A stretch of 64,000 bases of DNA from Candidatus Woesebacteria bacterium RBG_13_46_13 (GTDB lineage: Bacteria > Patescibacteriota > Microgenomatia > UBA8517), in contig MGFR01000001.1 in NCBI GenBank assembly GCA_001791995.1, positions 242,638-306,637 on the forward strand, written 5' to 3'. Below, piece by piece: positions 36,378 to 64,000 of the stretch. The position numbers and the translations under genes are program-made. Numbering within the stretch: position 1 is the stretch's first letter; each line of letters begins with the position of its first letter. Below the pieces are notes generated by a model. That model was not told the DNA's origin and made no database searches. It worked only from the letters and a program-made list of their open reading frames with translations.

Positions 36378-37004
36378 ATGCTGGGGACAAAAGTTATCGA
36401 AGAAGTCCGTTCTGCCCTCAACGGAAAGATCGAGGTGGTAAAGTCCGTCGGGTTCGGCACCTATATCAAAGTTGAAGGCCTTACCCAATCCGGAGGGGTT
36501 GTATATGAGGTTTGGCAAAGCACCCTGAAAAAGGTCAAGGGTAAAAAATTAGACATTCAAAGAAGCCTCATCTTGGGTTTAGGCGGCGGAAGTGCGGCCA
36601 AGCTGGTCAAAAAATATTGGCGAGAGGCCAAAATAACCGGTGTGGACATTGACCCGGTGATGGTAAGGTTGGGGGAAAAGTACCTCGATCTTAAGGATGT
36701 TGAAATTCGGGTAGAGGATGCAGAGAAGTTTATTGGTAGAGAGGTTGCGGCCGGTACCAAGTACGACCTGATCCTTATCGATATGTATATCGGGGATACC
36801 GTTCCCGAGAAGTTCCAGTCGGACAAATTTATTAAGACTATTCATACAATGTTGGGCCAGGGCGGAGTCGCGATTTTCAACAGGCTTTACTTCGGAGAAA
36901 AAAGATCTGAGGCGGTGAAGTTTGGCAACAAACTAGAAAAGGCTTTTTTGAATGTTGAGTATGTCTACCCTGAAGCGAACCTGATGTTTGTTTGTCTTAA
37001 ATAG
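36378..37004 (+). CDS. spermidine-synthase-like class I SAM-dependent methyltransferase
   Basis: 208 aa. GLGGGSAAK SAM-binding loop, ITGVDIDP and ILIDMYIGD (the PABS-like D-x-x-D region). Confidence 0.6.
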   Translation: MLGTKVIEEVRSALNGKIEVVKSVGFGTYIKVEGLTQSGGVVYEVWQSTLKKVKGKKLDIQRSLILGLGGGSAAKLVKKYWREAKITGVDIDPVMVRLGEKYLDLKDVEIRVEDAEKFIGREVAAGTKYDLILIDMYIGDTVPEKFQSDKFIKTIHTMLGQGGVAIFNRLYFGEKRSEAVKFGNKLEKAFLNVEYVYPEANLMFVCLK

Positions 37005-38148
37005 CCTGCTTGGCTCTGGCTTCTTTGTAGAATTTCTTGATTGAAACAGTAAGCGCTCCCAGCCCGAAAAGCAGAACAAATAATTTGACGAATCCCGCCG
37101 CAAAAGGAATTAGGCTGACCAGGAAAAAGACCAAGACTCCCAAGGCATAAGCCCAGTTGTCACTGGTTTTACCGGAGACAATTTTCTTGCCTGCCCAGAA
37201 AAACACAAAGACTTTGGCCAGGTAAAGCGCAACAAAATATAGCGCAAAAAGTATCAGGGCAATGGGGAATCCGATGATTGTTAGCATCAAAATTACTAGT
37301 GCCAGGGGTGTGAGAAATACCAGCAGAAAACCTTTGCCCAGACTTTTCCAGGGCGATTTCTCGAGAGTGGCTGCGACCTTACCTACAAACCCGGGGAAGA
37401 GATTCAAAAGGATAAGCCCAATCACCAGTAGCGAAAGGGAGCTGATGAGTTTGCCCGAGACCTGGGCCTTCCAGATATTTTGGGTAATCATCTTTGTATC
37501 CAGTTTGGATGGGGAAAGCTCAACCGGGGATTTATTAAAGACAGTTTTCCCGACAATCTTGGCGCTGGGGTCGATTTGGGCTTCATGGTCTGCCCAATAG
37601 GTGAAATCCTTGGTAACCTGGGCACCTGAGGTCAATCTTATTTCTCCGGCTGCGACATCAAGTCTCCCCCCGACCTGATCCGAGACCGTGACGTTGCCTC
37701 CGGCAATTTCCACGTTTCCGGCAACGGGGGTTGAAAGGGTGATGTTACCGCCCGCAACGACCAAAGCTCCTCCCACGCTGGCACCTTTGGCAATGTCGAT
37801 ATTTCCGCCGGCAACGGTAATGTTTTTACCGACCTTGCCGCTTATCGTGACTTGCCCTCCGAAGACTCTCACGTCTTGGGTTACCTCGCCGTCAACCTTG
37901 ACGTTTCCGCCGGCCACCAATAAATCTCCGTCAACCTTGCCGCTGACGGTAATTTCTCCGCCGGCCGCATAGACATCGCCAATAACCACTCCGGAGATAT
38001 CAACCGTTTCCCCATAGGCAAAATAGGGATTTTCACTGATAGTTTTGTCTTTGGCCAGGGAGAAATTTTTACTTTGGGCTTTTACCGAGGTGGCCGAGAA
38101 GAGAAAGAGCAGAAAAAGGGAAAGTAATAACGAAATTATTTTTCTCAC
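36997..38148 (-). CDS. bactofilin-like polymer-forming (beta-helical repeat) protein with C-terminal multi-TM anchor
   Basis: 383 aa with signal peptide. More than 8 repeats of VxGxVxGD(L)xVAGGNVxV (DUF583/bactofilin-type), followed by about four TM helices. Confidence 0.6.
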   Translation of the reverse strand: MRKIISLLLSLFLLFLFSATSVKAQSKNFSLAKDKTISENPYFAYGETVDISGVVIGDVYAAGGEITVSGKVDGDLLVAGGNVKVDGEVTQDVRVFGGQVTISGKVGKNITVAGGNIDIAKGASVGGALVVAGGNITLSTPVAGNVEIAGGNVTVSDQVGGRLDVAAGEIRLTSGAQVTKDFTYWADHEAQIDPSAKIVGKTVFNKSPVELSPSKLDTKMITQNIWKAQVSGKLISSLSLLVIGLILLNLFPGFVGKVAATLEKSPWKSLGKGFLLVFLTPLALVILMLTIIGFPIALILFALYFVALYLAKVFVFFWAGKKIVSGKTSDNWAYALGVLVFFLVSLIPFAAGFVKLFVLLFGLGALTVSIKKFYKEARAKQAI

Positions 38149-48534: not shown

Positions 48535-50220
48535 TTATTCTTCTCTGAGTTCCCGCGGACTATTTACTTCTTGAGACCTTTGTTCGATAAATTCAACAGG
48601 ATTAATATATCTGTTTCTTATCCATGTAGCATTTACCCCCGAGGGGGCGTAAGGTCTATGGCCCATATCGGTGTCCCAGGTGGCCCCATAGGCAATCGCC
48701 AAATGCAGATGGCTGTCGAGTTGTCCGCCCGAGGCGCCCATTGTGCCTATCACCTGGCCTTTTCGGGTAATTACCCCAACCCTGAGGTTAATATCGTTTA
48801 AGTGTCCGTAAAGACTGATTACCTCGCTGCCTTCGGGTAGTCGATGGCGGATGATGACGGTTTTACCCAGCCCATGGCCCGGAATTTCTTCTGCGTAAAT
48901 ACACTCGCCGTTGGCAACGGCCTTGATGGGTGTTCCCAAATCGGAATTGATTACTCCTTGAGGACCCGTATTAATATCTACACCTTCGTGATTTTCGGGA
49001 CTTAGATAGGTATTGCCCAATCTGATGTCTCCATCGATGGGCATTCTGAAAGAATCCGCAATCGGGATGGGTGCTCCTTCCCTAAAGGCCGCATCATAGA
49101 CTTCCCAGTATTTACTTCTTGCTTCCCAGTCGAATACTTCAACAGGGTACCCCCAGGTCGTTAAAACCAGATAGTCCCGGATGAATTTAAAATATCTTCT
49201 GGCTGCTTCTTTTTTATCTACCCCGTCCCTTTCGAAAGGTCCAAAAACAAGCTCCTTGGCAGCATTTTCCTCTTCGGTTAAGGCTTTAGCGCCCAATAAA
49301 AGCTTTAACTCGGCCAGATAGGCCCTGCCGGGATCTATTCTATCCAGTTGAACTTCGTAGTGACCCACAAGGTTAGTGGCGGGAATGCTGTCTCTTTTCA
49401 TAATGGCCCAGATAACGCTTAAGAGATTAGCCGTTTTTTGATTATCGGGATGGGTCTCCGAGTCGAAATCTCTACCGGTTACCTCTATTGCCCAGGAATA
49501 CCAGTTGGGGTCGGTGGAGCGGCGAAACCAGTCTTGGGCCGGAGAGATTACCCCTTGGGGAAATCCATTTTCCCTGCCCAGCCGATAAAGAGAGCTTAGG
49601 TAATGGTTAGCGCCCCTGTTGTATCCTTCGTAATCCAAGGGAATGGCGATGTGGGAGGCAAGAGTTGCGTCTCCCAACCTCGGGGTTTGCGTTTGGACAA
49701 TTGAGACAGGGCTTTCAAGTGTTGCCGGTGCCCCCGGGGGAATACTGCCGACCAGAAAATGGGCACTGGTTGTTGTTTCGTAGGATGTTCCTCCCAGGGT
49801 AGAGATATTTCTGCGTCCGTCAAAACCCCAAATATAATTTTGGATGGTGGTTTCGGGATCCGCCGAATCCGAAAACCAGTGCAGCACTATTGCCCTGGGC
49901 CTGTCCGTTCTTAACCTGTCGGCCTCACGATTTCTCCGCCGGCTCCATTCGGTGGGGAAAAACGGTGCTTGTCCGCGGATGGCCCCGTTTCTGCCCAAAA
50001 GAGACAGAAACCCGTCTTCGTTGATTAGGGTCGGTGGGGTTAACTCGATGATGCCCCTGGGGTATTCGGGGAGTCTATCCAGCGATAGAGTGGGCCATTC
50101 GCCCTCCGGAGGAAGGGATCGCAAGGATTCTGGAACAAAAGCAGATGCCGCAGTCAATCCGCTAAGTTTGAGAAAGTCCCTTCTTGATAATTTATCCAAA
50201 CCGTCTGTTTCCTTCATCAA
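48535..50220 (-). CDS. Tat-signal secreted bifunctional cell-wall hydrolase: N-acetylmuramoyl-L-alanine amidase-like (Amidase_2) + C-terminal M23 peptidase
   Basis: 561 aa. Tat signal LSRRDFLKLSGLTAASAFVP. The middle region (RAIVLHWFSD...TTSAHFLVGS) is Amidase_2/PGRP-like. The C-terminus carries M23 HxxxD (HEGVDIN) and HxH (SHLHLAI) motifs. Confidence 0.65.
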   Translation of the reverse strand: MMKETDGLDKLSRRDFLKLSGLTAASAFVPESLRSLPPEGEWPTLSLDRLPEYPRGIIELTPPTLINEDGFLSLLGRNGAIRGQAPFFPTEWSRRRNREADRLRTDRPRAIVLHWFSDSADPETTIQNYIWGFDGRRNISTLGGTSYETTTSAHFLVGSIPPGAPATLESPVSIVQTQTPRLGDATLASHIAIPLDYEGYNRGANHYLSSLYRLGRENGFPQGVISPAQDWFRRSTDPNWYSWAIEVTGRDFDSETHPDNQKTANLLSVIWAIMKRDSIPATNLVGHYEVQLDRIDPGRAYLAELKLLLGAKALTEEENAAKELVFGPFERDGVDKKEAARRYFKFIRDYLVLTTWGYPVEVFDWEARSKYWEVYDAAFREGAPIPIADSFRMPIDGDIRLGNTYLSPENHEGVDINTGPQGVINSDLGTPIKAVANGECIYAEEIPGHGLGKTVIIRHRLPEGSEVISLYGHLNDINLRVGVITRKGQVIGTMGASGGQLDSHLHLAIAYGATWDTDMGHRPYAPSGVNATWIRNRYINPVEFIEQRSQEVNSPRELREE

Positions 50221-50348: not shown

Positions 50349-51971
50349 TTAGTTAGCCCTGACGTAGCCCATCCGCTCGAATTCCTCGATACGGGATTCC
50401 CCGACTTCGATGGGGATTTGGGTGGTTGGATGAATCATTTTCACCCTGCCCTCCGTATGCTCCGGATCGGGACTGTAGCGGATTCCCCTCATGGTTTCGG
50501 GCTGGCGTGGTCTGGTGGGCTCATCGACCTGGACGGGAACCTGTTCGGCTCCTATCCTTCTGGGGCGACCGCCCTTGGCGCGGAGCTTGTTGTCCTCCAC
50601 CTCCAGACGTTGGTTGACGCGTTGCTCGCGCTTGGCCATCGCCTCATCGATTGCATTGGTGACTTCGATGAGGTGGCTCCATTGGTAGGTAGCCCACAAG
50701 GCGGGGACTTCAGTCCCAAGCCTGACCAAAACGCTGTCCCAGTTGGGATCTTCGGGGAGACTGACCTGATAGCCATCCGTAAGTACGGTCTCTTTCTCTT
50801 TGAGATCCGCGACCCGTTTCTGCAGGGCCAGGATGACTTTCTGCCAGTTAACAAGTTCCCCGACGTCCTTGGCGGCGCTGTCCAGCTGCGCTCCGATTTC
50901 TCCGAGGACCAGATCCAGCTCGTCCCACTTGTGGACATCCGCCCACAAGACTGGAACATGCTGGGTGAGTACCCCCGAGACTTCGACAAGCGCATCCGGC
51001 TCGGAAGGCACTGCGCCTTCGACGAGCGAGTCGTTCAGGAACTGGACGAAGCGGTCCCTGGTGGAATCCAGCCTGGCCTCCAGTTTTGCAATGTCGGAAG
51101 CCTTCTTGATGAATCCGTGCTGGATATCCGCTGAGGCCTTCTCCACGAACTCGGCGATGACCTCGGGGTCGGTTCCTTGCTCCTTGGCCAGGGCAATCTG
51201 ACTCCTACACCAGACGATGTAGGGCCGTATCATGCCCAGCTTCAGAATTTTGGATCCGTCCCCAACCGGAGATTCGGAGAGCTCCAGAAGTCCAGGAATA
51301 TTCCTGGACTTAGCGAGAGCCCTATGGCTCCGCTCCTTGCGTACGAGGTAGCCGAGGGCATAGCGGAAAGCCTTTTCGGCACCCGCCAGCCTCTTCCACC
51401 GACGTGCACGTTCCAACTCCTCAGCCTTCTTGAGTTTCTCGTGCTCCTCGATGAGAACCGGGAGCTCGATTGGGGTAATCTTGCGACCGCCCCAAAACTG
51501 GTTGGGAGTTGTTGCGTACTCCAGTTTCTCAATGAGCTGTTTCTGCTCTCGGGCCAATGTTTCAGTTCTGGCCAAGAGCTTCTTCAAGCCCTTGATGGAG
51601 TACTGCGATATCTGCAGGAATCGGTCGGGGGCTTTATCCTCCTGATACCAGAAGGTTACCCACCAACCCCAGAAACCGCCGAGCCTCTCGGTCAGAGGCG
51701 GGGAGAGTTCCTGGTAAGCGTCGTACACGCTGGTGTAGAGCTTTTCGATTTCTCCGCAGATGTTGACTGCCTTTCCACCGACCCTGATGACGATGTCGCG
51801 GTAGTCGAAATAGAGCTTACCGGTCCACGTCCACTCCTCCTCGATGCTGTTCCAGAGCTCGGTAATCGCAAGCATCAACTTGCGCTTGTTTCTCCCGTGG
51901 ACAACCAGGAGGATTACCGAGAAAACCAGTAGGGCGACCATAATGCCACCCCGAATCCAAAGGCCGTTCAT
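50349..51971 (-). CDS. hypothetical membrane-anchored 540-aa protein, GC-rich orphan
   Basis: Longest ORF of the patch, with an N-terminal TM (IMVALLVFSVILLVV) and no recognisable domain. The plus-strand ORFs 50340..51134 and 51177..51932 are treated as shadow ORFs of this GC-rich gene. Confidence 0.45.
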   Translation of the reverse strand: MNGLWIRGGIMVALLVFSVILLVVHGRNKRKLMLAITELWNSIEEEWTWTGKLYFDYRDIVIRVGGKAVNICGEIEKLYTSVYDAYQELSPPLTERLGGFWGWWVTFWYQEDKAPDRFLQISQYSIKGLKKLLARTETLAREQKQLIEKLEYATTPNQFWGGRKITPIELPVLIEEHEKLKKAEELERARRWKRLAGAEKAFRYALGYLVRKERSHRALAKSRNIPGLLELSESPVGDGSKILKLGMIRPYIVWCRSQIALAKEQGTDPEVIAEFVEKASADIQHGFIKKASDIAKLEARLDSTRDRFVQFLNDSLVEGAVPSEPDALVEVSGVLTQHVPVLWADVHKWDELDLVLGEIGAQLDSAAKDVGELVNWQKVILALQKRVADLKEKETVLTDGYQVSLPEDPNWDSVLVRLGTEVPALWATYQWSHLIEVTNAIDEAMAKREQRVNQRLEVEDNKLRAKGGRPRRIGAEQVPVQVDEPTRPRQPETMRGIRYSPDPEHTEGRVKMIHPTTQIPIEVGESRIEEFERMGYVRAN

Positions 51972-52163: not shown

Positions 52164-52904
52164 GTGATTCAATTTAAAAAAGTCAGCAAATCCTTCGGGA
52201 CAATCAAGGCTCTGGAAGAGGTCTCCTTTGAGGTCGGGAAAGGAGAGTTTGTCTATATCACCGGCCCCTCCGGAGCCGGCAAAACCACACTTCTGAAGCT
52301 TATCCTCAGGGAGTATCAACCCGACTCCGGGGAGATAGTCCTGGAGGGGGTAGATATCACCAAACTTTCCGATGAACAAATTCCAGAATACCGCCAAAAG
52401 ATAGGGGTGGTTTTCCAGGATTTTAAAGTCTTACCCGAAAGAACCGTCAGGGAAAACGTAGAGGTTTCTTTGGCTGTTATCGGAGTTGCCCAAGAGGCAT
52501 GGTCGGCCAGAGTCGGTCAGGTTTTAAAACTGGTGGGGCTGGCCGAAAGAGCCGATCTTTTTCCCAACCAACTTTCCGGAGGAGAAATCCAAAGGGTTTC
52601 TTTGGCACGGGCATTGGTGGTTAATCCGAAAATTATTCTCGCCGATGAACCGACCGGAAACTTGGACTGGGAAACGGCGGATTCAATGATGGAGCTTTTC
52701 GAGAAAATCAACAAAGAGGGGAAAACAATAATTATGGCGACCCACAACAAAGTAATCGTCGATAAATTCAAAAAAAGGGTGATTAAGCTCAAGGGCGGGA
52801 AGAACGTGGGCAAGGAAAAGGTTCACGAGCTGGAAAAAGAGCCCAAAAAAGAAGAAAATGAAAAAGGGGAAGGCAAGATGAAGGTTAAGGTGGAGGAAGT
52901 ATGA
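52164..52904 (+). CDS. ftsE: cell-division ABC ATPase FtsE
   Basis: 246 aa. Walker A GPSGAGKTT, signature LSGGEIQRVSLARAL, Walker B ILADEPTGNLD, and a Lys/Glu-rich C-terminal tail. Confidence 0.88.
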   Translation: MIQFKKVSKSFGTIKALEEVSFEVGKGEFVYITGPSGAGKTTLLKLILREYQPDSGEIVLEGVDITKLSDEQIPEYRQKIGVVFQDFKVLPERTVRENVEVSLAVIGVAQEAWSARVGQVLKLVGLAERADLFPNQLSGGEIQRVSLARALVVNPKIILADEPTGNLDWETADSMMELFEKINKEGKTIIMATHNKVIVDKFKKRVIKLKGGKNVGKEKVHELEKEPKKEENEKGEGKMKVKVEEV

Positions 52905-53815
52905 ATATCCATTTCAAAACCGCATTCGATTATATAAAAAGGGCTCCTTTTCAGGCCCTATCGGCCATCTCGGTTCTGACCCTGACCTTCTTCGTATCGA
53001 CAATGGTGGCAGTTCTGGCCTATTCATCCGGCAATCTCCTGAAGTATTTCGAGACCAGACCTCAGGTAATTGCCTTCCTTAAAAATGAAGTTACCCCCCA
53101 GGATGTTTCGGCGCTTCAAAACAAACTCACCGCGGATGAGCGGGTGAAAGAGGTCCGCTATGTTTCCAAAGAAGAAGCTCTAAACATTTACAAAGAGGCC
53201 ACATCAGATAACCCGCTATTATCGGAACTGGTCAGCCCGTCGATTTTCCCGGCGTCTTTGGAGTTTTCCTTGGCAAATTTAAGTTATGCGGAGGATATTA
53301 TTGCCCAGGTTAAAAAAGAATCTATTGTCGACCAGGTCGGTTTTACCGCCAGCCTTGGGGGAGAATCTACCCTTCAGGACGTTGTTTCCAGGCTCAAAAC
53401 CATCACCCTTTATGTCAGAATTGGGGGTATGGTTTTGGTCGGGATGCTGGGTGCCGTGTCGTTTCTGGTGCTTATCGTCATCATCGGCATGCGGATGGCA
53501 ACCCGCAAGGGGGAGATTGAAATACTGGATTTAATCGGGGCCACCCCGAAATTTATCCGGAGCCCGATTGTCATTGAAGCTCTGATTTATTCCTTTGCCG
53601 GGGTACTCTTGGGCTGGGCCATATCGTTTCTCTTTTGGCTCTACGTAACCCCCAATATCGTTGCCTACTTTGGGGAAATCCCGGTTCTGCCCAAAGGCAC
53701 TTGGGATTTTCTTATCCTGCTGGTAATTATTTTGGGGGCGGAGCTTTTGATTGGTTCTTTATTGGCGCTTTTGGGAAGCATGCTTGCGGTCTCCCGTGCC
53801 AAGAGAACCCGATGA
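52901..53815 (+). CDS. ftsX: cell-division permease-like protein FtsX
   Basis: 304 aa. Four TM helices with a large first extracellular loop. Overlaps the ftsE stop. Confidence 0.8.
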   Translation: MNIHFKTAFDYIKRAPFQALSAISVLTLTFFVSTMVAVLAYSSGNLLKYFETRPQVIAFLKNEVTPQDVSALQNKLTADERVKEVRYVSKEEALNIYKEATSDNPLLSELVSPSIFPASLEFSLANLSYAEDIIAQVKKESIVDQVGFTASLGGESTLQDVVSRLKTITLYVRIGGMVLVGMLGAVSFLVLIVIIGMRMATRKGEIEILDLIGATPKFIRSPIVIEALIYSFAGVLLGWAISFLFWLYVTPNIVAYFGEIPVLPKGTWDFLILLVIILGAELLIGSLLALLGSMLAVSRAKRTR

Positions 53816-54939
53816 GAGAAACAGTAAAAAAAATTCTTCTTCTGGCCACAGTCTTTGCTCTCGTCTTCTTCGGTCTAAAAATTAGAAATGTCTTGGCCGA
53901 GGCCTGCGCAGACAAGACAAATCTCAACGACAGAATTAACTGCTACGAGGATGAGCTTTCCCGCCTTGGGGCGCAATCCAAAACTCTTTCTAACCAGATT
54001 GCCCAGTTCGATGCCCAGATAAAACTCACCACCCTTAAGATATCCCAGACAGAGGAAAAAATTTCTCTTCTGGGAGGAAGGATAGACCAGCTGGAAGGCT
54101 CTCTGGATGCTCTTTCGGCCGCATTTAGCTCAAGAGCGGTAGAAACCTACAAGATGGCCAGGGTCGGGGACCCGGTTTTACTTATCGTTTCGGCTCCGGA
54201 TTTGGGTGGAGCAATTTCGAGATTCCACTATTTGCAAAGAATCCAGGAGGCGGACAGGGATTTACTGCAAAAGCTTCAGACCGCCCAAGATACATATAAG
54301 GTAGAAAAGACCGACCAGGAGCAACTGCAGGATGAGCTTGAGAAACAGAAAGCCAACTTAGATGCGCAGAAGAAAGCAAAAAATGCACTTTTAGCCCAGA
54401 CCAAAAACGACGAAAAGAGATATCAGCAGCTTTTGAGTCAGGCCATTGCGGAGAAAGCAGCAGTTGAGCGGGCGCTGGTGTCCGGTGTCAAAGTTGGCCC
54501 GGTTAAAAGAGGCGATCCAATAGCTTTGGTAGGTAACTCCGGGTATCCGGGTTGCTCTACGGGAAAGCATTTACACTTTGAAATCCGAAAAAACAATACG
54601 TGGGTGGATCCGGGAGGCTATCTCTCCGGAAAAACCGTCATCGATGAACAAAACGGAGGAGGTAACGTCAGCTTGGGCTCGGGTAGCTGGCCTTGGCCAA
54701 TAGAAGATACGGTTCGCCTCACACAATTTTATGGGCATACTCCGTATTCTTGGAAGTATGCCTACTCGGGCGGGCTCCACACCGGATATGACATGGTTTC
54801 AACTTCAAGCGATGTAATAAGAGCTCCTGCGGACGGAACTCTCTTTAAGTCTGCACAATCCTGTGGCTCCAGTACAATAAACATCGCTTACATCGAGCAT
54901 GGGGATAATGTGGTTAGTCTTTATCTCCACGTCCAGTAA
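53812..54939 (+). CDS. EnvC-like coiled-coil M23 peptidase-domain protein (FtsEX-associated), with an additional C-terminal M23-like module
   Basis: Start at MRETVKK (ATG overlapping the ftsX stop, ATGA). TM/signal, coiled coil, M23-like GNSGYPGCSTGKHLHFEIR, and a second HxGxD...HxH-like segment (GLHTGYDM...LYLHVQ). Confidence 0.7.
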   Translation: MRETVKKILLLATVFALVFFGLKIRNVLAEACADKTNLNDRINCYEDELSRLGAQSKTLSNQIAQFDAQIKLTTLKISQTEEKISLLGGRIDQLEGSLDALSAAFSSRAVETYKMARVGDPVLLIVSAPDLGGAISRFHYLQRIQEADRDLLQKLQTAQDTYKVEKTDQEQLQDELEKQKANLDAQKKAKNALLAQTKNDEKRYQQLLSQAIAEKAAVERALVSGVKVGPVKRGDPIALVGNSGYPGCSTGKHLHFEIRKNNTWVDPGGYLSGKTVIDEQNGGGNVSLGSGSWPWPIEDTVRLTQFYGHTPYSWKYAYSGGLHTGYDMVSTSSDVIRAPADGTLFKSAQSCGSSTINIAYIEHGDNVVSLYLHVQ

Positions 54940-54942
54940 ATC

Positions 54943-55782
54943 ATGCCCAAAATCCTGTCGGCTGCAATAATATATATTGTTGCAGTTCTTCTTCTCTCGA
55001 CCTTCCCAATATCAGCAAAAGCGCAGGTGGTGATAAATGAGTTTAGTTCTGGAACCACTTCGGACTGGATAGAACTTTATAATGTTTCAACACAATCTGC
55101 CAATTTATCGACCTACATCCTTAAAGACTCGGGATCTAACGACAAAACTCTATCAGGGGATATTCCTCCTTCAGGTTTTGTGTCTTTCAATTTCAGCAAT
55201 TGGTTAAATAACGACGCGGATACGGTGCGGCTATTTAACGGCAGTGATTTGGTAAATTCTATTGCTTATGGAGGAGAAGGAAATGTTTGTAGTGCGGGGA
55301 GTGGTCAGTCAATAGGCAGATATCCTGACGGTAACAATACAGTGGAACGCTTTATTACTTCGACAAGAGATGCATCCAATAATAGTGTCACACTTGACCC
55401 CTGTCCTACTCCAACCCCGACTCCAACACCCACTCCCACGCCAACTGCTACTCCCACACCAACACCAACGCCGACACCAACCCCAACTCCAACTCCGACT
55501 AAAACTCCTACCCCAACTGCCAAGGCAACCGCAAAACCCACTGTTTCTGCAGATAAAGTGGATGAAGCCGAAGAAGTGGTTTTGGGATTAAGGAATGAGC
55601 TGGCGACGGAAACCCCCACACCGGCTTTGGTTGCATCCGAACAAAAGAAAAAATTCCCGATTGGCGCAGTAATTTTGATAATAGTGGGAACTGTGTTGGT
55701 GGCGGGATCCGGTTTTGTATTATTTAAGAAAATGAGGCAAGATATAAGTCAGAGCGGAGAAGATGTTAACCAAGATAATTAG
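54943..55782 (+). CDS. lamin-tail-domain (LTD) surface protein with PT-repeat linker and C-terminal TM anchor
   Basis: 279 aa with signal peptide. LTD pattern QVVINEF...DWIELYN...RLFNGSDLV, a (PT)n linker, and a C-terminal hydrophobic helix plus basic tail. Confidence 0.65.
   Translation: MPKILSAAIIYIVAVLLLSTFPISAKAQVVINEFSSGTTSDWIELYNVSTQSANLSTYILKDSGSNDKTLSGDIPPSGFVSFNFSNWLNNDADTVRLFNGSDLVNSIAYGGEGNVCSAGSGQSIGRYPDGNNTVERFITSTRDASNNSVTLDPCPTPTPTPTPTPTPTATPTPTPTPTPTPTPTPTKTPTPTAKATAKPTVSADKVDEAEEVVLGLRNELATETPTPALVASEQKKKFPIGAVILIIVGTVLVAGSGFVLFKKMRQDISQSGEDVNQDN
55405..55540 (+). repeat. imperfect hexanucleotide (CCNACN)n repeat encoding the Pro-Thr linker
   Basis: About 22 tandem ACNCCN units, visible directly in the DNA. 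Confidence 0.8.
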
Positions 55783-57866: not shown

Positions 57867-58115
57867 ATGAAAGGACGGCTGGTTCTTAAGGTCCGTCCCA
57901 AGAAGGGTGCGAGTATTACGTTTCTGTCTTCCGTCTTGGCGGGCAGCATACCGGCTGTAGTTGCCAAAACCGTGTCGGGTGGAAAGGCGACCTTTGAACC
58001 CGACAAGGACGGGAACTTCGAAGTCAGACTTCTTGACGAGACCTTTGAAGGTCAACTCAAGAGGCTTCTGGAAAGCACAAGCTTCGAAGTCCTGGAACTC
58101 CAGGAAGTCGCCTGA
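57867..58115 (+). CDS. hypothetical small protein
   Basis: 82 aa from the internal Met (MKGRLVLKV...). No recognisable domain. Confidence 0.3.
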   Translation: MKGRLVLKVRPKKGASITFLSSVLAGSIPAVVAKTVSGGKATFEPDKDGNFEVRLLDETFEGQLKRLLESTSFEVLELQEVA

Positions 58116-58199
58116 TGTTGCCTCGCCGCAGAGTTAGCCCTCCTTATTACTGCTTCTTGTCCCCAGGAGGGCTTTTCTCTTCTTATTTGCCATAGCAAT

Positions 58200-58997
58200 T
58201 TGAAATATGTATTATTATTTCTATACATGAGAAGGTTAGTTTTCTTAGGCTTCGCTTTCGCTTTCCTTTTTGGGTTATTTATGACCCCTGTTCTTTCGGC
58301 AAAACCGACTGATATCCCCGAAGAAGACGGGATTTATGACGAGCCAGGACATCCCGGAGTGAAAGTTAGGGTTTTTGTGCACAGGGAAAGACCTGCTAAG
58401 CCCAGTACACCACCCACCCTTGTTTGTGAACTCACCGACCCGAGTTCCCCCGCTATCGTTGGAAAAGAGGCCTGGAAACTGCCATCAACTTGGACTTATA
58501 ACCTAAATCCTTCCAGTGTTCCTGCCTCGGTCGGCTCCGGAAGTTTGCAAACAATTGCAGCAAACGGATTTAATGATTGGCAGAGCGCATCCGGGAATAA
58601 AGTCCATTTTGCCAGAGGCTCGGATACGACAGTCTCGAGACAAGCGTATGACGGCGTTAACGTAGTTACCTGGGGAAGAACTTCAGGAAGCGCCTTGGGG
58701 GTTACCTATATAAGGTATAACGGTACAACAGGTGAGGCTTTAGACGTGGATACTATTATGAATAGCAAGTTTACCTGGAGCTGGTCAAACTCCGTTAGTT
58801 GCGCCTACTCTTCAACCTATGATGCGGAAAATATTATGACCCACGAGCTGGGACACTGGCTGGGTTTGACCGATGAGTACGATGCAGCCAACTATCAAAA
58901 CGCGACAATGTACGGATATGGCGCCAAAGGAGAAGTGAAGAAAGTTACCTTAACCACTGGAGATAGCGCGGGCGCATTCGCTATCTATAATCCTTGA
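58200..58997 (+). CDS. secreted metzincin zinc metalloprotease (snapalysin/M7-like HExxHxxGxxD with Met-turn)
   Basis: 265 aa with signal peptide. HELGHWLGLTDEYD (compare snapalysin HETGHVLGLPD) and a downstream Met-turn-like ATMYGYG. Confidence 0.65.
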   Translation: MKYVLLFLYMRRLVFLGFAFAFLFGLFMTPVLSAKPTDIPEEDGIYDEPGHPGVKVRVFVHRERPAKPSTPPTLVCELTDPSSPAIVGKEAWKLPSTWTYNLNPSSVPASVGSGSLQTIAANGFNDWQSASGNKVHFARGSDTTVSRQAYDGVNVVTWGRTSGSALGVTYIRYNGTTGEALDVDTIMNSKFTWSWSNSVSCAYSSTYDAENIMTHELGHWLGLTDEYDAANYQNATMYGYGAKGEVKKVTLTTGDSAGAFAIYNP

Positions 58998-59590
58998 TGA
59001 CAAAACCCAAAATACTTCATTTTTTGGGAAACCTTTTAATCTTCATCGCTGCCGTAATTTTGGTTCTTACCTTTACTCCCGTATTTGAGCAGGAAGCCAA
59101 GTACCAGATCAAGCACACTTTCAATTCGCCTTACAAAGAAAAAGATTTAACCCCGCCCAATACGGATTTTGCCATCGTCATACCCAAAATAGGTGCGGTT
59201 GCACCGGTTATTGCCAACACCGACCCCTTGGACCCCAAAAAATACATGCCCGTTTTGTATAAAGGGGTTGCCCACGCCAAAGGAACGGCTTTCCCCGGAG
59301 AGTTTGGAAACACTTATATTTTCGCCCACTCGACGGACACTTTTTATAATGTGGGCCGCTATAACGCCGTTTTTTACCTGATTGGCAAGCTCGAGAAGGG
59401 GGACGAGATAGATATTTACTATAAGGGTGAGAAGATCGTCTATGAGGTAGTGGAAAAGAAGGTTGTTGGGGCTGATGCCGTAAAGTATCTGGGGAAGCTG
59501 GGAGAGTGGAACACCTTGACTCTGCAGACCTGCTACCCACCGGGGACAACCCTTAAAAGGCTGGTAGTTGTGGCCAATGAAAAAATATAG
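58994..59590 (+). CDS. sortase (TLxTC catalytic motif)
   Basis: 198 aa. N-terminal TM anchor, catalytic His region (YIFAHST) and the active-site TLQTC motif. Confidence 0.8.
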   Translation: MMTKPKILHFLGNLLIFIAAVILVLTFTPVFEQEAKYQIKHTFNSPYKEKDLTPPNTDFAIVIPKIGAVAPVIANTDPLDPKKYMPVLYKGVAHAKGTAFPGEFGNTYIFAHSTDTFYNVGRYNAVFYLIGKLEKGDEIDIYYKGEKIVYEVVEKKVVGADAVKYLGKLGEWNTLTLQTCYPPGTTLKRLVVVANEKI

Positions 59591-59647
59591 GCCCATAATT
59601 TGACAATTAAAGACAAAAAATGTATAAATCACTAACTGCCCCAATAA

Positions 59648-62600
59648 ATGAGCCAAAAACTGCTTAAACGCGTCTTTTCGGCCATAGCCGCATTTTCACT
59701 TCTGGTGAACTCTATTTCCGCGCCTCTTACGGTTTACGCACAGAACGCTGGAAATTCTCCATTAGCCGCCGATCCGCCCCATACGCCTAATCCATCCGGA
59801 AACCTTGACCAATGTAGCAATGGATCCTCAGTTTCTCCCACGAATCCTTGCACTTGGGTAAATGGAAACCTGAATAGCAATCAAGCACATTATGTAGAAG
59901 GACAATCGGTGCCATATAGACTTATCATGGAAGATTTGCCGGTCTCCTCGTCTATAACCCTGACGCTAGGATATGATATCAAACACAGTGATAAGCACGC
60001 TCTTGATTACTTAACCCACTTTAACCGATTAGAACCCCACAGCCCTTTTGGGCATACTGCTGAAACGATAGACCCAGCAAGTGGGATATCTGGACTATCT
60101 GCGACGGTGACAACCTATTCAATCCCGTCCCCGAGCTCGGTTGGTTCACCAGTGAGTGGGCAACCAACAACAAGTTTTGATGCGCTTCCAGCTGGGGAAA
60201 AATTGATGACTCTCTATGGTGGAACAATTAACGATATCGTTTACAACACTCAGGGGGACCTAACCGATTCACAAGCAGAGACAAGAATAGATATCATTTT
60301 TACCGCTGATAGCGCGACCGCTGTCTTAGCTTGGGGGGGTCATATTGCGAGTAGACTCGACTGGGGTTTTGATGGGTTAACCCCCAGATCGGCCAGCGGA
60401 ATTAGCGGTTCCCCTTATCACATGAGGCAGATAAGCTGGACTATAGGAAATCTGGGGAATCAAGACAGGTCTCTACAGGCAGGAGCAGTGATACCTCCTG
60501 GAAATTTGACTATCATTAAGCAGATAGAACCACCTGATTCTACTCTTTGGGATTTTTCTGTGACAGGCCCCAATAGCTATACAAACAGTATTCAGGACTT
60601 GGGGGATGGAGGTCAATCGGTATTGAGCGTGGCCCCAGGAACATACACCATAACCGAAACAACCAGTCAGGATTATTCCCCAAGTGTTACCTGCAACACG
60701 GGCGAAAGTGGCTCCGGAAGCGTCCAGGTTGATATTTCTTCGACAGAGAACGTGGTGTGCACTTTTGTAAACACCCTACAGCCGGCCCATTTGACGCTGG
60801 TTAAAACAATTACGATTGACAATGGAGGTGTAGCCACAGTAGCTGATTGGACTTTAAGCGCAAGTGGAACCACACCAATTTCAGGAACTTCTGGAAGCGG
60901 TGCAGTTACAAATGCAGCAGTATATTCGGGAACATACTCTCTCTCCGAGAGTGGGCCTTCAGGCTATACCCCGAGTGCCTGGAGTTGTATTAAAAACGCA
61001 GGGCAACCTATAGAAGGAAATTCGATAGTTCTCGCTCCGAACGATACGGCGGTTTGTACGATTAACAATGACGACATTTCTCCTTCGCTCACACTTGATA
61101 AGGTGTTGATCAAGGACAATGGAGGCAATGCACAGGAAAGCGACTGGACCCTAACCGCAACTGGTCCGACGCCTCTTTCTGGTCCTGGGGCGGCCGGCTC
61201 TGCAGATGTTGTAAGCGGATCAGGATTTTCAGCTGGGACTTATACTCTTTCCGAATCAGAAGGACCAGAGGGGTATTCTTCTAGCGCCTGGAGTTGTACA
61301 GGAACGGCTACCCAAAACGGAAACGAGATTACTCTAGCATTGGGTCAAACAGCCACCTGTACTGTTACAAATAATGATATTGCACCGACTCTTACCCTCG
61401 TCAAGACAGTATCGAACGACAATGGAGGAACAAAAGTCGTTTCCGATTTCCCGCTTTTTATAAACGGCGTTTCCGCCACAAGCGGGGTTGCCTACCCCTT
61501 AATGGCCAATACGCTCTATACGGCAACAGAAACACAGGATGAGGATTATCAAGCATTTCCTTGGGGTACGGACTGTGCACCAGATGGCACCATAACTCTC
61601 CAGCTTGGGGAGAATAAAACTTGCACAATTTTGAATGACGATATTGCTCCCACATTAACTTTGGTAAAGAGCGTTTTCAATGATTACGGGGGCAATAACC
61701 TCGTTTCCGATTTTTACCTCTATATCAACGATCTTTTGGTAACAAGCGGGGTACCAAATACCCTTAACGCAGGAAGTTATACAGCTAGCGAAGGCCCGTT
61801 GTCAGGCTATACTCCTTCAAGCTGGGGTGGCGATTGTAGTGCAGGCGGGGCAGTGACGCTTCTTCCGGGAGATAATAAAACCTGTACTATATCAAACAGC
61901 GATACCCCGGCGTCAATAACTTTGACTAAAGTTGTAATTAGTGACAATGGCGGAAACGCTGGAGTCAACGACTTTGGTTTAAGTATAGGTGGCGCCCCCG
62001 TCAGTTCTGGGACTACAAGGCAAGTAAATTCGAATACTCCGATTACCATAGACGAAATTGGCCTTACGGGCTACGGTTTCGTTTCGATAACAGGCGATGC
62101 GAAGTGTCCGGCACAGTTGGGTGGAACAGTAACCCTGAATGAAGGAGAAAGCGTAAGTTGTACCATAACGAACGATGATGAGGCGCCAACTATCACTTTG
62201 GTTAAAGATGTCATAAATGACAATGGAGGGTTAGCTGGAGAAAACGATTTTGGCCTAACAATAGGTGGAACAGGGGTAAATTCAAATCAAACCCTAACCG
62301 TTGTTGCAAACACCCCGTACGTCATTACCGAGGCCGGAAAGACGGGCTACGCGTTTGTGTCAATATCCGGCGCAGGCTGTCCGGCTGAGCTCGGGGGAAC
62401 AGTTACTCCTAACGAAGGGGAAGATATTGTTTGTACCATTACAAACGATGATGTTTCCCCGACCGTAACCTTAAATAAAATAGTCAGAGGGGGAGAGGCA
62501 GGAGTCAACGACTTTGGCTTAACGGTTGGAGGGCAGGGAGTCAATTCCGGCCAAACAGTAAATGTAACAGCCAACACCCCGATTGGATTAAACGAAGCAG

Positions 62601-63964
62601 GCCTTGACGGCTATAGTTTTGATTCGATAACAGGTGCCGGTTGCCCATCTACATTAGGAGGAACCGTTACTTTAGGCGAGGGAGGAAGCATCACCTGTAC
62701 AATTATTAACACGAGAGATATTGGAGATATCTCGGGTTATAAATTTGAAGACCTGAACGGTAACGGAGATTGGGATGACGGTGAACCCGGATTGGCGGGT
62801 TGGACGATCGAGCTCTGGGGTGGGCAGGAAGACTTAATCGATTCTACGGTAACCTCAGCAGATCCCCTCGGAGAATACGGGTTTGAGAATATTCCGACTG
62901 GTGAGTATGCTGTTTGCGAGGTATTAGAGGACGGCTGGACACAAACTTATCCTCAAGGATGCCATTTCTTCACTCTTACGAAAGAAGGCATACAAGGATT
63001 AGATTTTGGCAACTTTAGGTTGGCCTCAATCGGGGACTTTATTTGGCGAGATAATGATGGGGATGGACTACAAGACCCAGGGGAACCAGGGATAGTAGGA
63101 ATTGGGGTAAACCTATATCTTGATGACGACGGAACCCCGGGATTAAATACTTCCACAGACTTACTAGTTGCCAGTGACATAACCGACGGAACCGGGGCAT
63201 ATCTGTTTGAAAATCTTGGCCCGGGCGAATACTTCACAGACGTTATCGAATCTACTTTGCCTGTAGGGTATTCCAATACGACCCCAGATCCTGTTGGGCC
63301 TATTATTTTGAGCTCCGGTGAAATCTATCTGCTTGCAGACGTCGGCTATGTTCCTCCCGTCAAGGAAATCAGAATCGAAAAGTCGAACGATAAGGAAGGC
63401 GGAGCAACAGCTGGAGATATCGTTACTTATTCTTTAGTTATTTCAAACACGGGAGATGTGGCTATCGGCGACGTAATCGTGACGGATGTATTACCCGGCG
63501 GATTCATATATGAAAACGGATCAACTTCAATCACAGGGGCTCCAGATGTTGAACCTGGAGTGGCGGGAAGTATTCTTACTTGGGATATCGGCACAGTATT
63601 TCCCAAAGAGCCGGTTACGATTATTTACCAGGCAAAAATTTCCTCGGAGCTGCCGGCAGGATCTTACAAGAACTATGCAACTTGCGAGGGACAGATAGGG
63701 GGAATTATTCCCCAGAATGGACCAGAGGAACGTGTTGCTGTGTATGAATCGGAACCGATAAGCTGTAATATCGATGATTCGGATGTTTCACTTGGTCAGT
63801 CCTTTAGCTACGGCGGAAAGCTTACGCCCCAGGTTTTAGGTGCGGCAACCGAACTTCCCGCTACGGGTAACTCAACCGGAATTCTGATCTTTGCCATCGC
63901 CGCAGGTCTTGGGGGATTTGCTCTTAAGCTGAGAGAAAAGAGGACAAAACATGCAAAAAACTAA
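59648..63964 (+). CDS. giant LPxTG-anchored surface protein with tandem Ig-like (prealbumin/SdrD-B-like) repeats and a DUF11-like domain
   Basis: 1438 aa with signal peptide. Seven or eight tandem repeats of about 95 aa (PTLTLVKxVxNDNGG...CTITNDD), SdrD-B-like segments (GYKFEDLNGNGDWDDGEPGLAGWTIEL), a DUF11-like region (DIVTYSLVISNTGDVAIGDVIVTDVLPGGFIY), and a C-terminal sorting signal LPATG (63854-63868) plus hydrophobic stretch plus KLREKRTKHAKN. Confidence 0.8.
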   Translation: MSQKLLKRVFSAIAAFSLLVNSISAPLTVYAQNAGNSPLAADPPHTPNPSGNLDQCSNGSSVSPTNPCTWVNGNLNSNQAHYVEGQSVPYRLIMEDLPVSSSITLTLGYDIKHSDKHALDYLTHFNRLEPHSPFGHTAETIDPASGISGLSATVTTYSIPSPSSVGSPVSGQPTTSFDALPAGEKLMTLYGGTINDIVYNTQGDLTDSQAETRIDIIFTADSATAVLAWGGHIASRLDWGFDGLTPRSASGISGSPYHMRQISWTIGNLGNQDRSLQAGAVIPPGNLTIIKQIEPPDSTLWDFSVTGPNSYTNSIQDLGDGGQSVLSVAPGTYTITETTSQDYSPSVTCNTGESGSGSVQVDISSTENVVCTFVNTLQPAHLTLVKTITIDNGGVATVADWTLSASGTTPISGTSGSGAVTNAAVYSGTYSLSESGPSGYTPSAWSCIKNAGQPIEGNSIVLAPNDTAVCTINNDDISPSLTLDKVLIKDNGGNAQESDWTLTATGPTPLSGPGAAGSADVVSGSGFSAGTYTLSESEGPEGYSSSAWSCTGTATQNGNEITLALGQTATCTVTNNDIAPTLTLVKTVSNDNGGTKVVSDFPLFINGVSATSGVAYPLMANTLYTATETQDEDYQAFPWGTDCAPDGTITLQLGENKTCTILNDDIAPTLTLVKSVFNDYGGNNLVSDFYLYINDLLVTSGVPNTLNAGSYTASEGPLSGYTPSSWGGDCSAGGAVTLLPGDNKTCTISNSDTPASITLTKVVISDNGGNAGVNDFGLSIGGAPVSSGTTRQVNSNTPITIDEIGLTGYGFVSITGDAKCPAQLGGTVTLNEGESVSCTITNDDEAPTITLVKDVINDNGGLAGENDFGLTIGGTGVNSNQTLTVVANTPYVITEAGKTGYAFVSISGAGCPAELGGTVTPNEGEDIVCTITNDDVSPTVTLNKIVRGGEAGVNDFGLTVGGQGVNSGQTVNVTANTPIGLNEAGLDGYSFDSITGAGCPSTLGGTVTLGEGGSITCTIINTRDIGDISGYKFEDLNGNGDWDDGEPGLAGWTIELWGGQEDLIDSTVTSADPLGEYGFENIPTGEYAVCEVLEDGWTQTYPQGCHFFTLTKEGIQGLDFGNFRLASIGDFIWRDNDGDGLQDPGEPGIVGIGVNLYLDDDGTPGLNTSTDLLVASDITDGTGAYLFENLGPGEYFTDVIESTLPVGYSNTTPDPVGPIILSSGEIYLLADVGYVPPVKEIRIEKSNDKEGGATAGDIVTYSLVISNTGDVAIGDVIVTDVLPGGFIYENGSTSITGAPDVEPGVAGSILTWDIGTVFPKEPVTIIYQAKISSELPAGSYKNYATCEGQIGGIIPQNGPEERVAVYESEPISCNIDDSDVSLGQSFSYGGKLTPQVLGAATELPATGNSTGILIFAIAAGLGGFALKLREKRTKHAKN
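60500..62720 (+). repeat. tandem array of about 285-nt coding repeats (Ig-like domains) inside the giant adhesin gene
   Basis: Seven or eight diverged copies, each starting P(S/T)LTL(V/D)K...DNGG and ending CT(I/V)xNDD. Confidence 0.7.
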
Positions 63965-64000
63965 AATAGCAACATTGTTACTTGGATTCTTGGCAGGCTT
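63948..64000 (+). CDS. 5' end of a further secreted-protein gene (partial, signal peptide only)
   Basis: ATG at 63948 overlaps the end of the giant gene. MQKTKIATLLLGFLAG is a signal-peptide-like start. Truncated by the window end. Confidence 0.3.

Follow-up and report, generated by a model that had tools for sequence, protein, structure and literature searches.

The right-hand end of a 64,000-nt stretch of the genome of Candidatus Woesebacteria bacterium RBG_13_46_13 (contig MGFR01000001.1, positions 242,638 to 306,637 of the forward strand; this whole stretch is hereafter called the window) carries three co-oriented genes on the + strand. They encode a secreted metzincin resembling matrix metalloproteinases (MMPs), a sortase, and a giant protein of 1438 amino acids (aa) that ends in a cell-wall sorting signal (Table 1); a fourth gene overlaps the end of the giant gene and is cut by the window end. 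The trio had been described in an earlier note made from the letters alone, and its coordinates, strand and protein families were all confirmed by the list of open reading frames (ORFs) and by Pfam. The sortase is 100% identical to an entry titled ‘MAG TPA: sortase [Patescibacteria group bacterium]’, listed in UniRef under ‘Candidatus Woesebacteria’. The other genes of the window are housekeeping genes such as those for SecA, SecDF, RecJ, RelA/SpoT, Lon and aminoacyl-tRNA synthetases, including a class I LysRS, and there is no second sortase within its 64 kb.

The sortase is a short enzyme with an N-terminal membrane segment (ILHFLGNLLIFIAAVILVLTF) and passed the cutoffs of both PF04203 (MEROPS C60; 84.1 bits, cutoff 26.6, E 8.5e-24) and NCBIfam TIGR01076 (48.8 bits, cutoff 39.35). 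The catalytic residues His111, Cys179 and Arg188 are invariant across 31 homologues that share the signature TLQTCYPPGT, which supports both the identity of the enzyme and the catalytic TLQTC motif highlighted in the earlier note. None of the NCBIfam class models reached its cutoff (class C 55.4 bits of 160, D 50.4 of 165, E 35.7 of 160, F 24.7 of 166), and those for classes A and B gave no match at E<=0.01. The closest solved sortases in a PDB sequence search belong to classes C and D, at only about 50 bits. No DP(F/W/Y) lid motif is present between the membrane anchor and the first strand (EQEAKYQIKHTFNSPYKEKDLTPPNTDF), and no C-terminal membrane anchor was found, the protein ending in ...VVVANEKI with no hydrophobic segment.

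The giant protein combines a signal peptide, an unannotated head, a long stalk of immunoglobulin (Ig)-like domains and the sorting signal. Its signal peptide keeps 56-97% identity in relatives, including those with a different passenger region. All Pfam matches of the giant were above cutoff: SpaA_2 with 289 bits over eight stretches (E 1.1e-87), SdrD_B with 96, SpaA_4 with 68 and DUF11 with 41. The seven or eight Ig-like repeats followed by SdrD_B- and DUF11-like modules that had been predicted thus resolve, by Pfam and alignment, into eight SpaA-type repeats (starting at aa 287, 382, 481, 582, 670, 757, 849 and 940), two SdrD_B domains and one DUF11. Every one of the eight repeats has a Lys in the first strand (LT[LI]xK), an Asn in the last strand (CT[IVF]xN), two Cys, and a catalytic-type Glu within an E-box-like YxxxE(S/T)xxxxGY; the first SdrD_B domain also keeps its triad Lys (K1032, GYKFED). 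Such Lys/Glu/Asn isopeptide triads are listed for SpaA_2, SpaA_4 and SdrD_B, SpaA_2 often comes with disulfides, and DUF11 has been renamed CLIPPER and has isopeptide chemistry; all of these are documented isopeptide domains of fibrillar adhesins (PMC12617251). By their conserved residues, most domains of the stalk are probably locked by internal Lys-Asn isopeptide bonds and disulfides. At the protein level the repeats are 16-67% identical to each other and fall into three subtypes, and Tandem Repeats Finder detected no DNA-level tandem repeats in the giant gene. Recent copy-number slippage is unlikely because the repeats are old.

The C-terminus of the giant reads TELPATG-NSTGILIFAIAAGLGGFAL-KLREKRTKHAKN, with LPATG at aa 1403-1407, a hydrophobic stretch of 19 residues and a tail with six Lys or Arg, i.e. 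a valid sorting signal. A scan for motif, hydrophobic segment and basic tail in window ORFs of at least 60 aa returned this as the sole convincing LPxTG-type tail. The YPK pilin motif is absent throughout the giant. A 383-aa ORF at 36997-38148 (-), with no Pfam match, also ends in a hydrophobic segment and a basic tail, here after IPFAA; it was rejected as a second sorting signal, since IPFAA is not LPxTG-like.

The sortase has 3324 homologues at E<=1e-5. A survey with one genome per species yielded 151 sortase loci, and ORFs were called and compared with the window proteins in the best 80 of these, which come nearly all from Woese-, Shapiro-, Gottesman-, Curtiss- and Levybacteria or unnamed Patescibacteria. 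Of the 30 closest species-level loci, in which the sortase is 47-66% identical, about 25 encode a giant of 900-2400 aa whose signal peptide is of the same type as in the window and whose gene begins 20-130 nt downstream of the sortase; more distant sortase loci (39-45% identity) are without a giant. The sortase-giant pair, which recurs in about 30 related loci, is also found in all five metagenomic relatives that stand closer, with a sortase 75-87% identical or a metzincin 86% identical. The five share the neighbourhood of the window, which runs FtsE-FtsX-M23-...-TsaE-epimerase-TsaB fragment-[variable slot]-sortase-giant-~300-aa gene-CAP-domain gene. LPATG, LPAAG or LPDTG, each with a membrane segment and Lys/Arg, was found in 26 sortase-adjacent giants, and the genes downstream of the giant in relatives encode a fibronectin type III (Fn3) membrane protein without LPxTG, a CAP-domain protein and an RNaseH-like protein. 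Many GTDB records with the cassette (loci L002, L004, L005, L007, L009 and others; relatives are cited by such locus numbers where they have to be told apart) bear the title ‘uncultured Gammaproteobacteria bacterium isolate binchicken_.../SRP...’, apparently a placeholder or a wrong label, and taxon counts based on such titles would mislead. One close relative, L082, has a second, shorter sortase (161 aa, TLYTC) preceded by a 327-aa secreted protein that ends in ...LGATG, a hydrophobic segment and a basic tail; these two proteins, encoded at L082 7635-9163, might form another pair of enzyme and substrate, one that uses a variant motif.

The conserved unit extends to the fourth gene, whose sequence beyond the window end was inferred from relatives. 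It starts in the +1 frame before the giant gene has ended, and the 14 nt shared by both genes span a run of six A (GCA AAA AAC TAA), an overlap that is also present in relatives. The full-length homologues of about 300 aa (L082-L085 and L087) begin with a signal peptide, followed by an Ig-like domain that contains two Cys, an Fn3-like domain and an acidic linker, and they end in a membrane segment with a basic tail; none of them has an LPxTG motif; the Fn3 assignment is weak (Pfam fn3 20.3 bits, below cutoff). BLAST with the L085 copy found this module at 27 loci, which together with the partial copy of the window makes all 28 of the 28 loci with an LPxTG-type giant, and at no sortase locus without one. 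Moreover, eight species-level genomes encode giant and module as one continuous reading frame, in the order head, stalk, LPATG or LPAAG, membrane segment, basic stretch, former signal peptide, Ig, Fn3, membrane segment. The internal sorting signal is intact in six of the eight fusions, 351-365 residues before the end, and in the other two (L020 and L028) ‘LGAATGS’ stands where LPxTG is expected. A one-base change in the A6 overlap of the window would give rise to the same fusion. At least 90% of 27 sequences keep a Lys where the Fn3 domain begins (Y-x-K-E). There is thus strong genomic evidence, from co-occurrence and fusion, for an Fn3 membrane protein that works with the sortase-giant pair. 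The earlier description of the three genes as a full toolkit was therefore imprecise in two respects, as the conserved unit holds a fourth gene and the metzincin is only occasionally part of it.

Table 1. Features of the sortase-giant locus in the window and of corresponding genes in related loci
Feature	Position	Strand	Basis or remark
Small 82-aa cytoplasmic-looking protein (MKGRLVLKVRPKKG...LELQEVA)	57867..58115	+	ORF list, conserved upstream neighbour
Promoter-like site TTGCCA-17-TATTAT before metzincin ATG	58187..58215	+	consensus scan
Secreted MMP-like metzincin	58227..58997 (longest ORF from TTG, 58200-58997, 265 aa)	+	Peptidase_M10, HELGHWLGLTD, Met-turn ATMYGY
Sortase, type II membrane protein, N-terminal anchor	58997..59590 (197 aa; longest ORF 58994-59590, 198 aa)	+	PF04203, TIGR01076, H111 (FAHSTD)/C179 (TLQTC)/R188
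Sigma-70-type promoter of giant gene, TTGACA-17-TATAAA, TG directly before -10	59600..59628	+	read from sequence
Giant protein	59648..63964 (longest ORF, 1438 aa)	+	Pfam
Signal peptide of giant, aa 1-32 (...SLLVNSISAPLTVYA/Q)	59648..59743	+	sequence
Head domain, aa 33-286	59744..60505	+	unannotated beta-sandwich (AlphaFold2)
Stalk, eight SpaA_4/SpaA_2 (CnaB-like) repeats, aa 287-1023	60506..62716	+	Pfam, repeat alignment
Two SdrD_B domains, aa 1024-1237	62717..63358	+	Pfam, E 1.9e-27
CLIPPER (DUF11), aa 1238-1385, conserved stalk base	63359..63802	+	PF01345 E 2.3e-10, TIGR01451
Cell-wall sorting signal: LPATG (63854-63868), hydrophobic segment, tail KLREKRTKHAKN, stop	63854..63964	+	sequence
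Start of fourth gene (MQKTKIATLLLGFLAG...), cut by window end	63951..64000	+	matches start of ~300-aa gene of relatives
Fourth-gene homologues	L082 15586-16509; L083 14889-15806; L084 14410-15324; L085 16016-16912; L087 11178-12074		
Fused giant and Fn3 ORFs	L003 10678-17109; L004 10883-16411; L006 977-6454; L008 10689-13562; L009 10666-17823; L012 10619-13915; L020 10677-16829; L028 10701-15626		
Second metzincin-like family (~260 aa, secreted)	L082 9208-9990; L007 6437-7216; L011 9246-10007; L016 9031-9900		
Homologues of the 82-aa protein	L082 7259-7507; L083 9702-9950; L085 9688-9936		

Regulatory signals fit a giant gene that is expressed in its own right. Its promoter lies within the 57-nt gap between the sortase and giant genes, and TTGAC together with TGTATAAA is invariant in six loci despite a diverged surrounding spacer, and the giant gene is thus very likely transcribed from a promoter of its own. 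The automatic promoter scan passed over this site because it accepts only -10 hexamers that end in T. A further conserved element, CT(A/T)(A/T)CTG(C/T)CC, lies in the short leader of the giant gene. A terminator-like hairpin (58153-58170) precedes the promoter-like site of the metzincin gene on its 5' side, and that site is weak evidence, given that the number of sites in the scan was not above the expectation from shuffled sequence. The metzincin stop codon overlaps the sortase start (ccTTGATGaca; TGA 58995-58997, ATG 58997-58999), and such a TGATG overlap is a classic arrangement for translational coupling, which would link the metzincin to the sortase.

The head of the giant (aa 33-286) had no sequence match in Pfam, NCBIfam or the PDB. 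Its AlphaFold2 model, built with 49 homologues, is mostly beta and of high confidence (predicted local distance difference test, pLDDT, 94.6; predicted template-modelling score, pTM, 0.90), and a Foldseek search of the PDB returned no match at E<=1e-3. The head family is large, with 2436 clusters at E<=1e-3 and 641 at E<=1e-30, and its members usually occupy residues ~30-300 of proteins of 500-2700 aa. Members with 50-65% identity occur in Bacteroidota isolates (Christiangramia, Cesiribacter) and in metagenome-assembled genomes labelled Zixibacteria, Chloroflexota, Acidobacteriota, Verrucomicrobiota and Thermoplasmatales. In other phyla the head is joined to PKD, HYR, SprB or disintegrin repeats, to type IX secretion system (T9SS) sorting domains, and also to SpaA/CLIPPER stalks. 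Its conserved motifs include AHYxEGxSxPYR, GYDIK, LAWGGHIAS, ISGSPYHMR and LGNQDRSL. We presume that the head is a ligand-binding tip, and it is a candidate for a new domain family.

Comparison of close relatives shows that the outer part of the giant is exchanged while both ends are kept. In the nearest relative (L085) the signal peptide is 97%, the second SdrD_B domain 83%, CLIPPER 74% and the C-terminus 98% identical to the window giant, whereas the head is absent and the stalk is just 25% identical. CLIPPER is 38-48% identical in the relatives other than L085, the L084 giant has a VWA domain instead of the head, and giant length varies between 1256 and 1871 aa across the six closest loci. 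By these alignments, head and stalk are swapped between close relatives, with the signal peptide and anchor end retained, and the swapping together with the VWA head points to partner recognition. A recent horizontal transfer of the head was tested by GC content and GC content at third codon positions (GC3) and rejected: neither is anomalous (0.479 compared to 0.474 for the window) nor differs from the rest of the gene, and the swap is therefore not visibly recent.

The metzincin most plausibly starts at ATG 58227 (MRRLVFLGF...; signal peptide ending MRRLVFLGFAFAFLFGLFMTPVLSA/KP) rather than at TTG 58200. It matched PF00413 Peptidase_M10 with 28.6 bits (cutoff 24), its AlphaFold2 model has a pLDDT of 88, and the best PDB folds for the model are karilysin and MMP-13 (E 3e-6, probability 1.00, target-normalised template-modelling score 0.66-0.72). 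Residues H206, E207, H210, G213, D216 and M228 are invariant in 38 homologues. The family counts 553 homologues, mostly of 255-265 aa and from members of the candidate phyla radiation (CPR) such as Daviesbacteria, Moranbacteria and Microgenomates. Match, zinc motif and fold bear out the proposal of a metzincin with a signal peptide; the label snapalysin-like, on the other hand, holds only for the Asp ligand in HExxHxxGxxD. Membership in the snapalysin family (MEROPS M7) was rejected, since NF033628 scored 16.9 bits where 300 are required. Snapalysin in the PDB (chains 1c7k and 4hx3) aligned over no more than the 26 residues of the zinc motif, with E 0.54, and the matrixins are the group indicated by Pfam and fold alike. 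The protein is best called an MMP-like metzincin with Asp as third zinc ligand. The best NCBIfam match, ‘myxosortase-dependent metalloprotease’ (53.6 bits against 250), was taken as generic metzincin similarity and not as a link to the sortase.

A metzincin gene of this family immediately precedes the sortase gene in the window and in L085, L086, L087 and L008; in L009 and L010 it is found within 4-6 kb of the sortase. The same slot in L082, L007, L011 and L016 holds a different metzincin-like family (QEVGHTFGLDH ... CMDY), in which Gln replaces the first His and only weak Reprolysin matches were found, and in other loci the epimerase gene abuts the sortase. As judged from gene order, the metzincin is a recurrent but dispensable accessory of the cassette. 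Whether the small 82-aa protein encoded upstream of it belongs to the system is uncertain. It has no Pfam match and no signal peptide, and homologues occupy the same position in L085 and L086, where the two proteins are 100% identical, in L082, with 65% identity to that of L085, and in L083, with 34%. Genes for cell-wall remodelling adjoin the locus, namely an Amidase_2 and M23 protein with a twin-arginine translocation signal at 48535-50220 (-), and FtsE/FtsX followed by a PcsB-like coiled-coil M23 protein, along with a secreted lamin-tail-domain protein (52164-54939 (+) and 54943-55782 (+)). A 540-aa ORF at 50349-51971 (-) had no Pfam match. Proteins with TasA/camelysin-like signal peptides (...GA(F/Y)FSDTE...) are encoded near sortases in L018 (from about 10860 onward), L049, L056 and L083 (5073-6266), and they might relate to non-sortase fibres such as the Pam pili of CPR bacteria.

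From the gene identities, motifs, synteny, promoter conservation and fold predictions observed, we infer that the locus is probably a sortase-dependent surface-display cassette of the Woesebacteria cell. The giant would be exported by Sec via its signal peptide (SecA and SecDF are encoded in the window), and its C-terminal hydrophobic segment and basic tail would hold it in the membrane. There, the membrane-anchored sortase would use Cys179 to cleave LPATG between Thr and Gly and would pass the giant to a surface amine acceptor, most likely a peptidoglycan precursor, as in Gram-positive bacteria. We take peptidoglycan as the default because wall-remodelling genes adjoin (the M23/PcsB-like protein with FtsEX, and Amidase_2), because the peptidoglycan pathways reported for Microgenomates are essentially complete (PMC7143001), and because the enzyme has the architecture of a housekeeping sortase. 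The product would be a single, non-polymerised fibre with a rigid stalk of 11 Ig-like domains (eight SpaA-type, two SdrD_B and one CLIPPER) that may place the beta-sandwich head some tens of nanometres from the cell, for binding a partner cell or surface. The giant appears to be translationally coupled to the downstream Ig/Fn3 membrane protein, which probably acts at the base of the fibre, and the metzincin, coupled to the sortase, might serve as an optional accessory in processing, shedding or attack on the surface of the partner. Adhesion as the function is suggested by analogy, from the fibrillar-adhesin architecture and the variable tip.

Several observations weigh against this interpretation. 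The sortase fits none of the classes A-F, and its specificity is hence not transferable from a characterised class. The NCBIfam LPXTG-anchor models gave no match to the giant at E<=0.01, TIGR01451 alone being returned. The isopeptide bonds are read from conserved residues and not from geometry, and the check for triads that the earlier note had proposed for predicted structures, made here on the sequence and positive in all eight SpaA-type repeats and for the Lys of the first SdrD_B domain, turned out negative for the second, which has Arg in place of the triad Lys (FIWRDND). Since the head has neither a known ligand nor a structural relative, it is the architecture that argues for the word adhesin. 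Finally, the strict co-occurrence and recurrent fusion of the Fn3 membrane protein would also fit a protein acceptor.

In that last case, the sortase would join the cleaved giant to the Ig/Fn3 membrane protein, at its N-terminus or a conserved Lys, and would thereby build a membrane-rooted two-protein fibre, comparable by analogy to a pilus shaft joined to its basal subunit. We regard this as unlikely, although the partner gene accompanies every LPxTG-type giant (28 of 28), is absent from sortase loci without a giant, overlaps the giant gene by 14 nt and contains the conserved Lys at the Fn3 start (Y-x-K-E, at least 90% of 27 sequences). The eight in-frame fusions behind the sorting signal would even deliver both proteins in equal amounts at the site where the sortase acts. 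Yet there is no recognisable pilin motif, and we know of no precedent. The fusions can be explained neutrally, as a one-base change in the A run fuses the frames and cleavage by the sortase separates the parts again, and adjacency fits a non-covalent platform or chaperone role equally well. A more far-reaching version would be a new three-part machine, made up of a CPR sortase outside classes A-F, an LPATG giant and an obligatory Ig/Fn3 partner, in which the giant is ligated to or assembled on the partner and not simply attached to peptidoglycan; this is a speculative proposal to which we give a small chance.

Similarly doubtful, in our view, is an anchored protein other than an adhesin, e.g. 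a spacer, a coat, a nutrient or ion binder or a phage decoy, with the metzincin as an unrelated neighbour. A head with no known ligand would permit this, SdrD_B-type domains bind calcium in known proteins, and the metzincin is directly upstream of the sortase in only five loci, with the second metzincin-like family in four more. However, a distal head on a stalk of isopeptide domains is the architecture of fibrillar adhesins (PMC12617251), and the exchange of head and stalk with the anchor end kept, like the VWA heads, suggests partner recognition. CPR bacteria are, moreover, widely inferred to live attached to hosts (PMC6744442), and two metzincin-like families in one slot as well as the TGATG coupling argue against pure chance. 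By far the least probable is a pilus assembled by a class C sortase, with the giant as pilin and more pilin genes beyond the window. It draws on the class C and D enzymes, which are the best NCBIfam class and the closest solved structures, and on the SpaA-type domains, which occur in pilins too. But the scores are low (55 bits against the class C cutoff of 160, about 50 bits to the PDB class C/D enzymes), the sortase has neither lid motif nor C-terminal anchor, the giant has no YPK, and the downstream genes in relatives encode Fn3 membrane, CAP-domain and RNaseH-like proteins instead of pilins. The pilus is thus rejected and largely refuted. With a valid sorting signal and a sortase that is not of the pilus-polymerising type, the earlier note was mostly right in its essentials, and its call for domain annotation is answered by the Pfam assignments (SpaA_2 eight times, SpaA_4, SdrD_B twice and DUF11).

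The preferred display cassette combines features of several known systems. With housekeeping sortases of the Staphylococcus aureus SrtA type the enzyme shares the N-terminal membrane anchor, the His/Cys/Arg triad and TLxTC, and with LPXTG substrates of Firmicutes and Actinobacteria the giant shares the Sec signal peptide, the LPxTG motif with hydrophobic segment and basic tail, and its single, non-polymerised state. In contrast to those, the window enzyme fails class A and all other class models and belongs to a Microgenomates clade with TLQTCYPPGT, and the genes for enzyme and substrate are adjacent and have a fixed third partner. Class C/SpaA pili of Corynebacterium diphtheriae and streptococci resemble the locus in that class C is closest by score among solved sortases and in the SpaA-type domains of the substrate with an E-box-like YxLxE(S/T)xxPxGY; unlike them, the locus has no lid, C-terminal anchor, pilin motif or further pilin genes, and its substrate has 1438 aa, whereas a typical pilin has about 500 aa. 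Staphylococcal SdrD and related microbial surface components recognizing adhesive matrix molecules (MSCRAMMs) also have SdrD_B repeats beside an LPXTG anchor, but the giant is without an N2-N3 A region, and its head matches none of the PDB sequences and no PDB fold at E<=1e-3. The metzincin has the fold, the HExxHxxGxxD motif and the Met-turn in common with karilysin of Tannerella forsythia, and Asp as third ligand with Streptomyces snapalysin. It is only 14-22% identical to MMP catalytic domains, and it differs from both karilysin and snapalysin as a CPR-wide family of ~255 aa with an N-terminal beta-hairpin extension and two invariant Cys.

In architecture the locus matches the fibrillar adhesins (Protein Sci 2025, PMC12617251; CLIPPER structure 9IFR), with tandem SpaA_2, SpaA_4, SdrD_B and CLIPPER/DUF11 domains, the same triad positions and accompanying disulfides, and a distal head, repetitive stalk and proximal anchor. 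The differences are the CPR host (‘Patescibacteria’ does not occur in the main text of PMC12617251), the unannotated head, and bonds that are here predicted from sequence. The Pam pilus of CPR bacteria assembles by donor-strand exchange (bioRxiv 10.64898/2026.03.03.709456) and was set aside as unrelated to the sortase cassette.

The earlier note had also expected such a locus to be rare if the organism were a CPR bacterium. The host is indeed a CPR bacterium, yet with 3324 homologues and 151 loci, rarity does not hold. Meheust et al. 2019 (PMC6744442) describe a sortase family that more than half of the CPR genomes possess and that is ‘near ubiquitous in Microgenomates’, and sortases or sortase-motif proteins in CPR are also mentioned in the genome papers PMC7143001, PMC5220378 and PMC4736985. 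The family in question, fam000526, agrees in phyletic pattern with our loci from Woese-, Shapiro-, Gottesman-, Curtiss- and Levybacteria, and its equation with the family of the window sortase is suggested by annotation and distribution. In the passages covered, PMC6744442 gives the distribution of fam000526 and contains neither substrates nor the sortase-giant-Fn3 cassette or its fusions. The cassette is therefore an expected, ordinary feature of Microgenomates. What raises it slightly above routine is a sortase clade outside classes A-F, a fourth gene that always co-occurs with the giant and is sometimes fused to it, a swappable head, and the large unannotated family, with no solved structural relative, to which this head belongs.

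CPR bacteria are thought to live attached to other microbes. To our knowledge, contact molecules are known only for a few cultivated Saccharibacteria, and these are mostly type IV and Pam pili. For Woesebacteria and related Microgenomates, the cassette offers a concrete candidate for such a molecule, a contact fibre with a covalent anchor, and one that is widely conserved; an exchangeable tip is what would be expected of a determinant of host range. The sortase, as a short, soluble-domain enzyme with a defined natural substrate, is well suited to biochemistry, and the locus brings to light an unannotated head domain that is common to secretion substrates of Bacteroidota. If the three-part machine were true, ultra-small bacteria would possess a membrane-rooted fibre with a swappable head, for which the fusions would be ‘Rosetta stone’ evidence of partnership, and with the head, a large, unannotated binding domain that crosses phyla would have its founding member.

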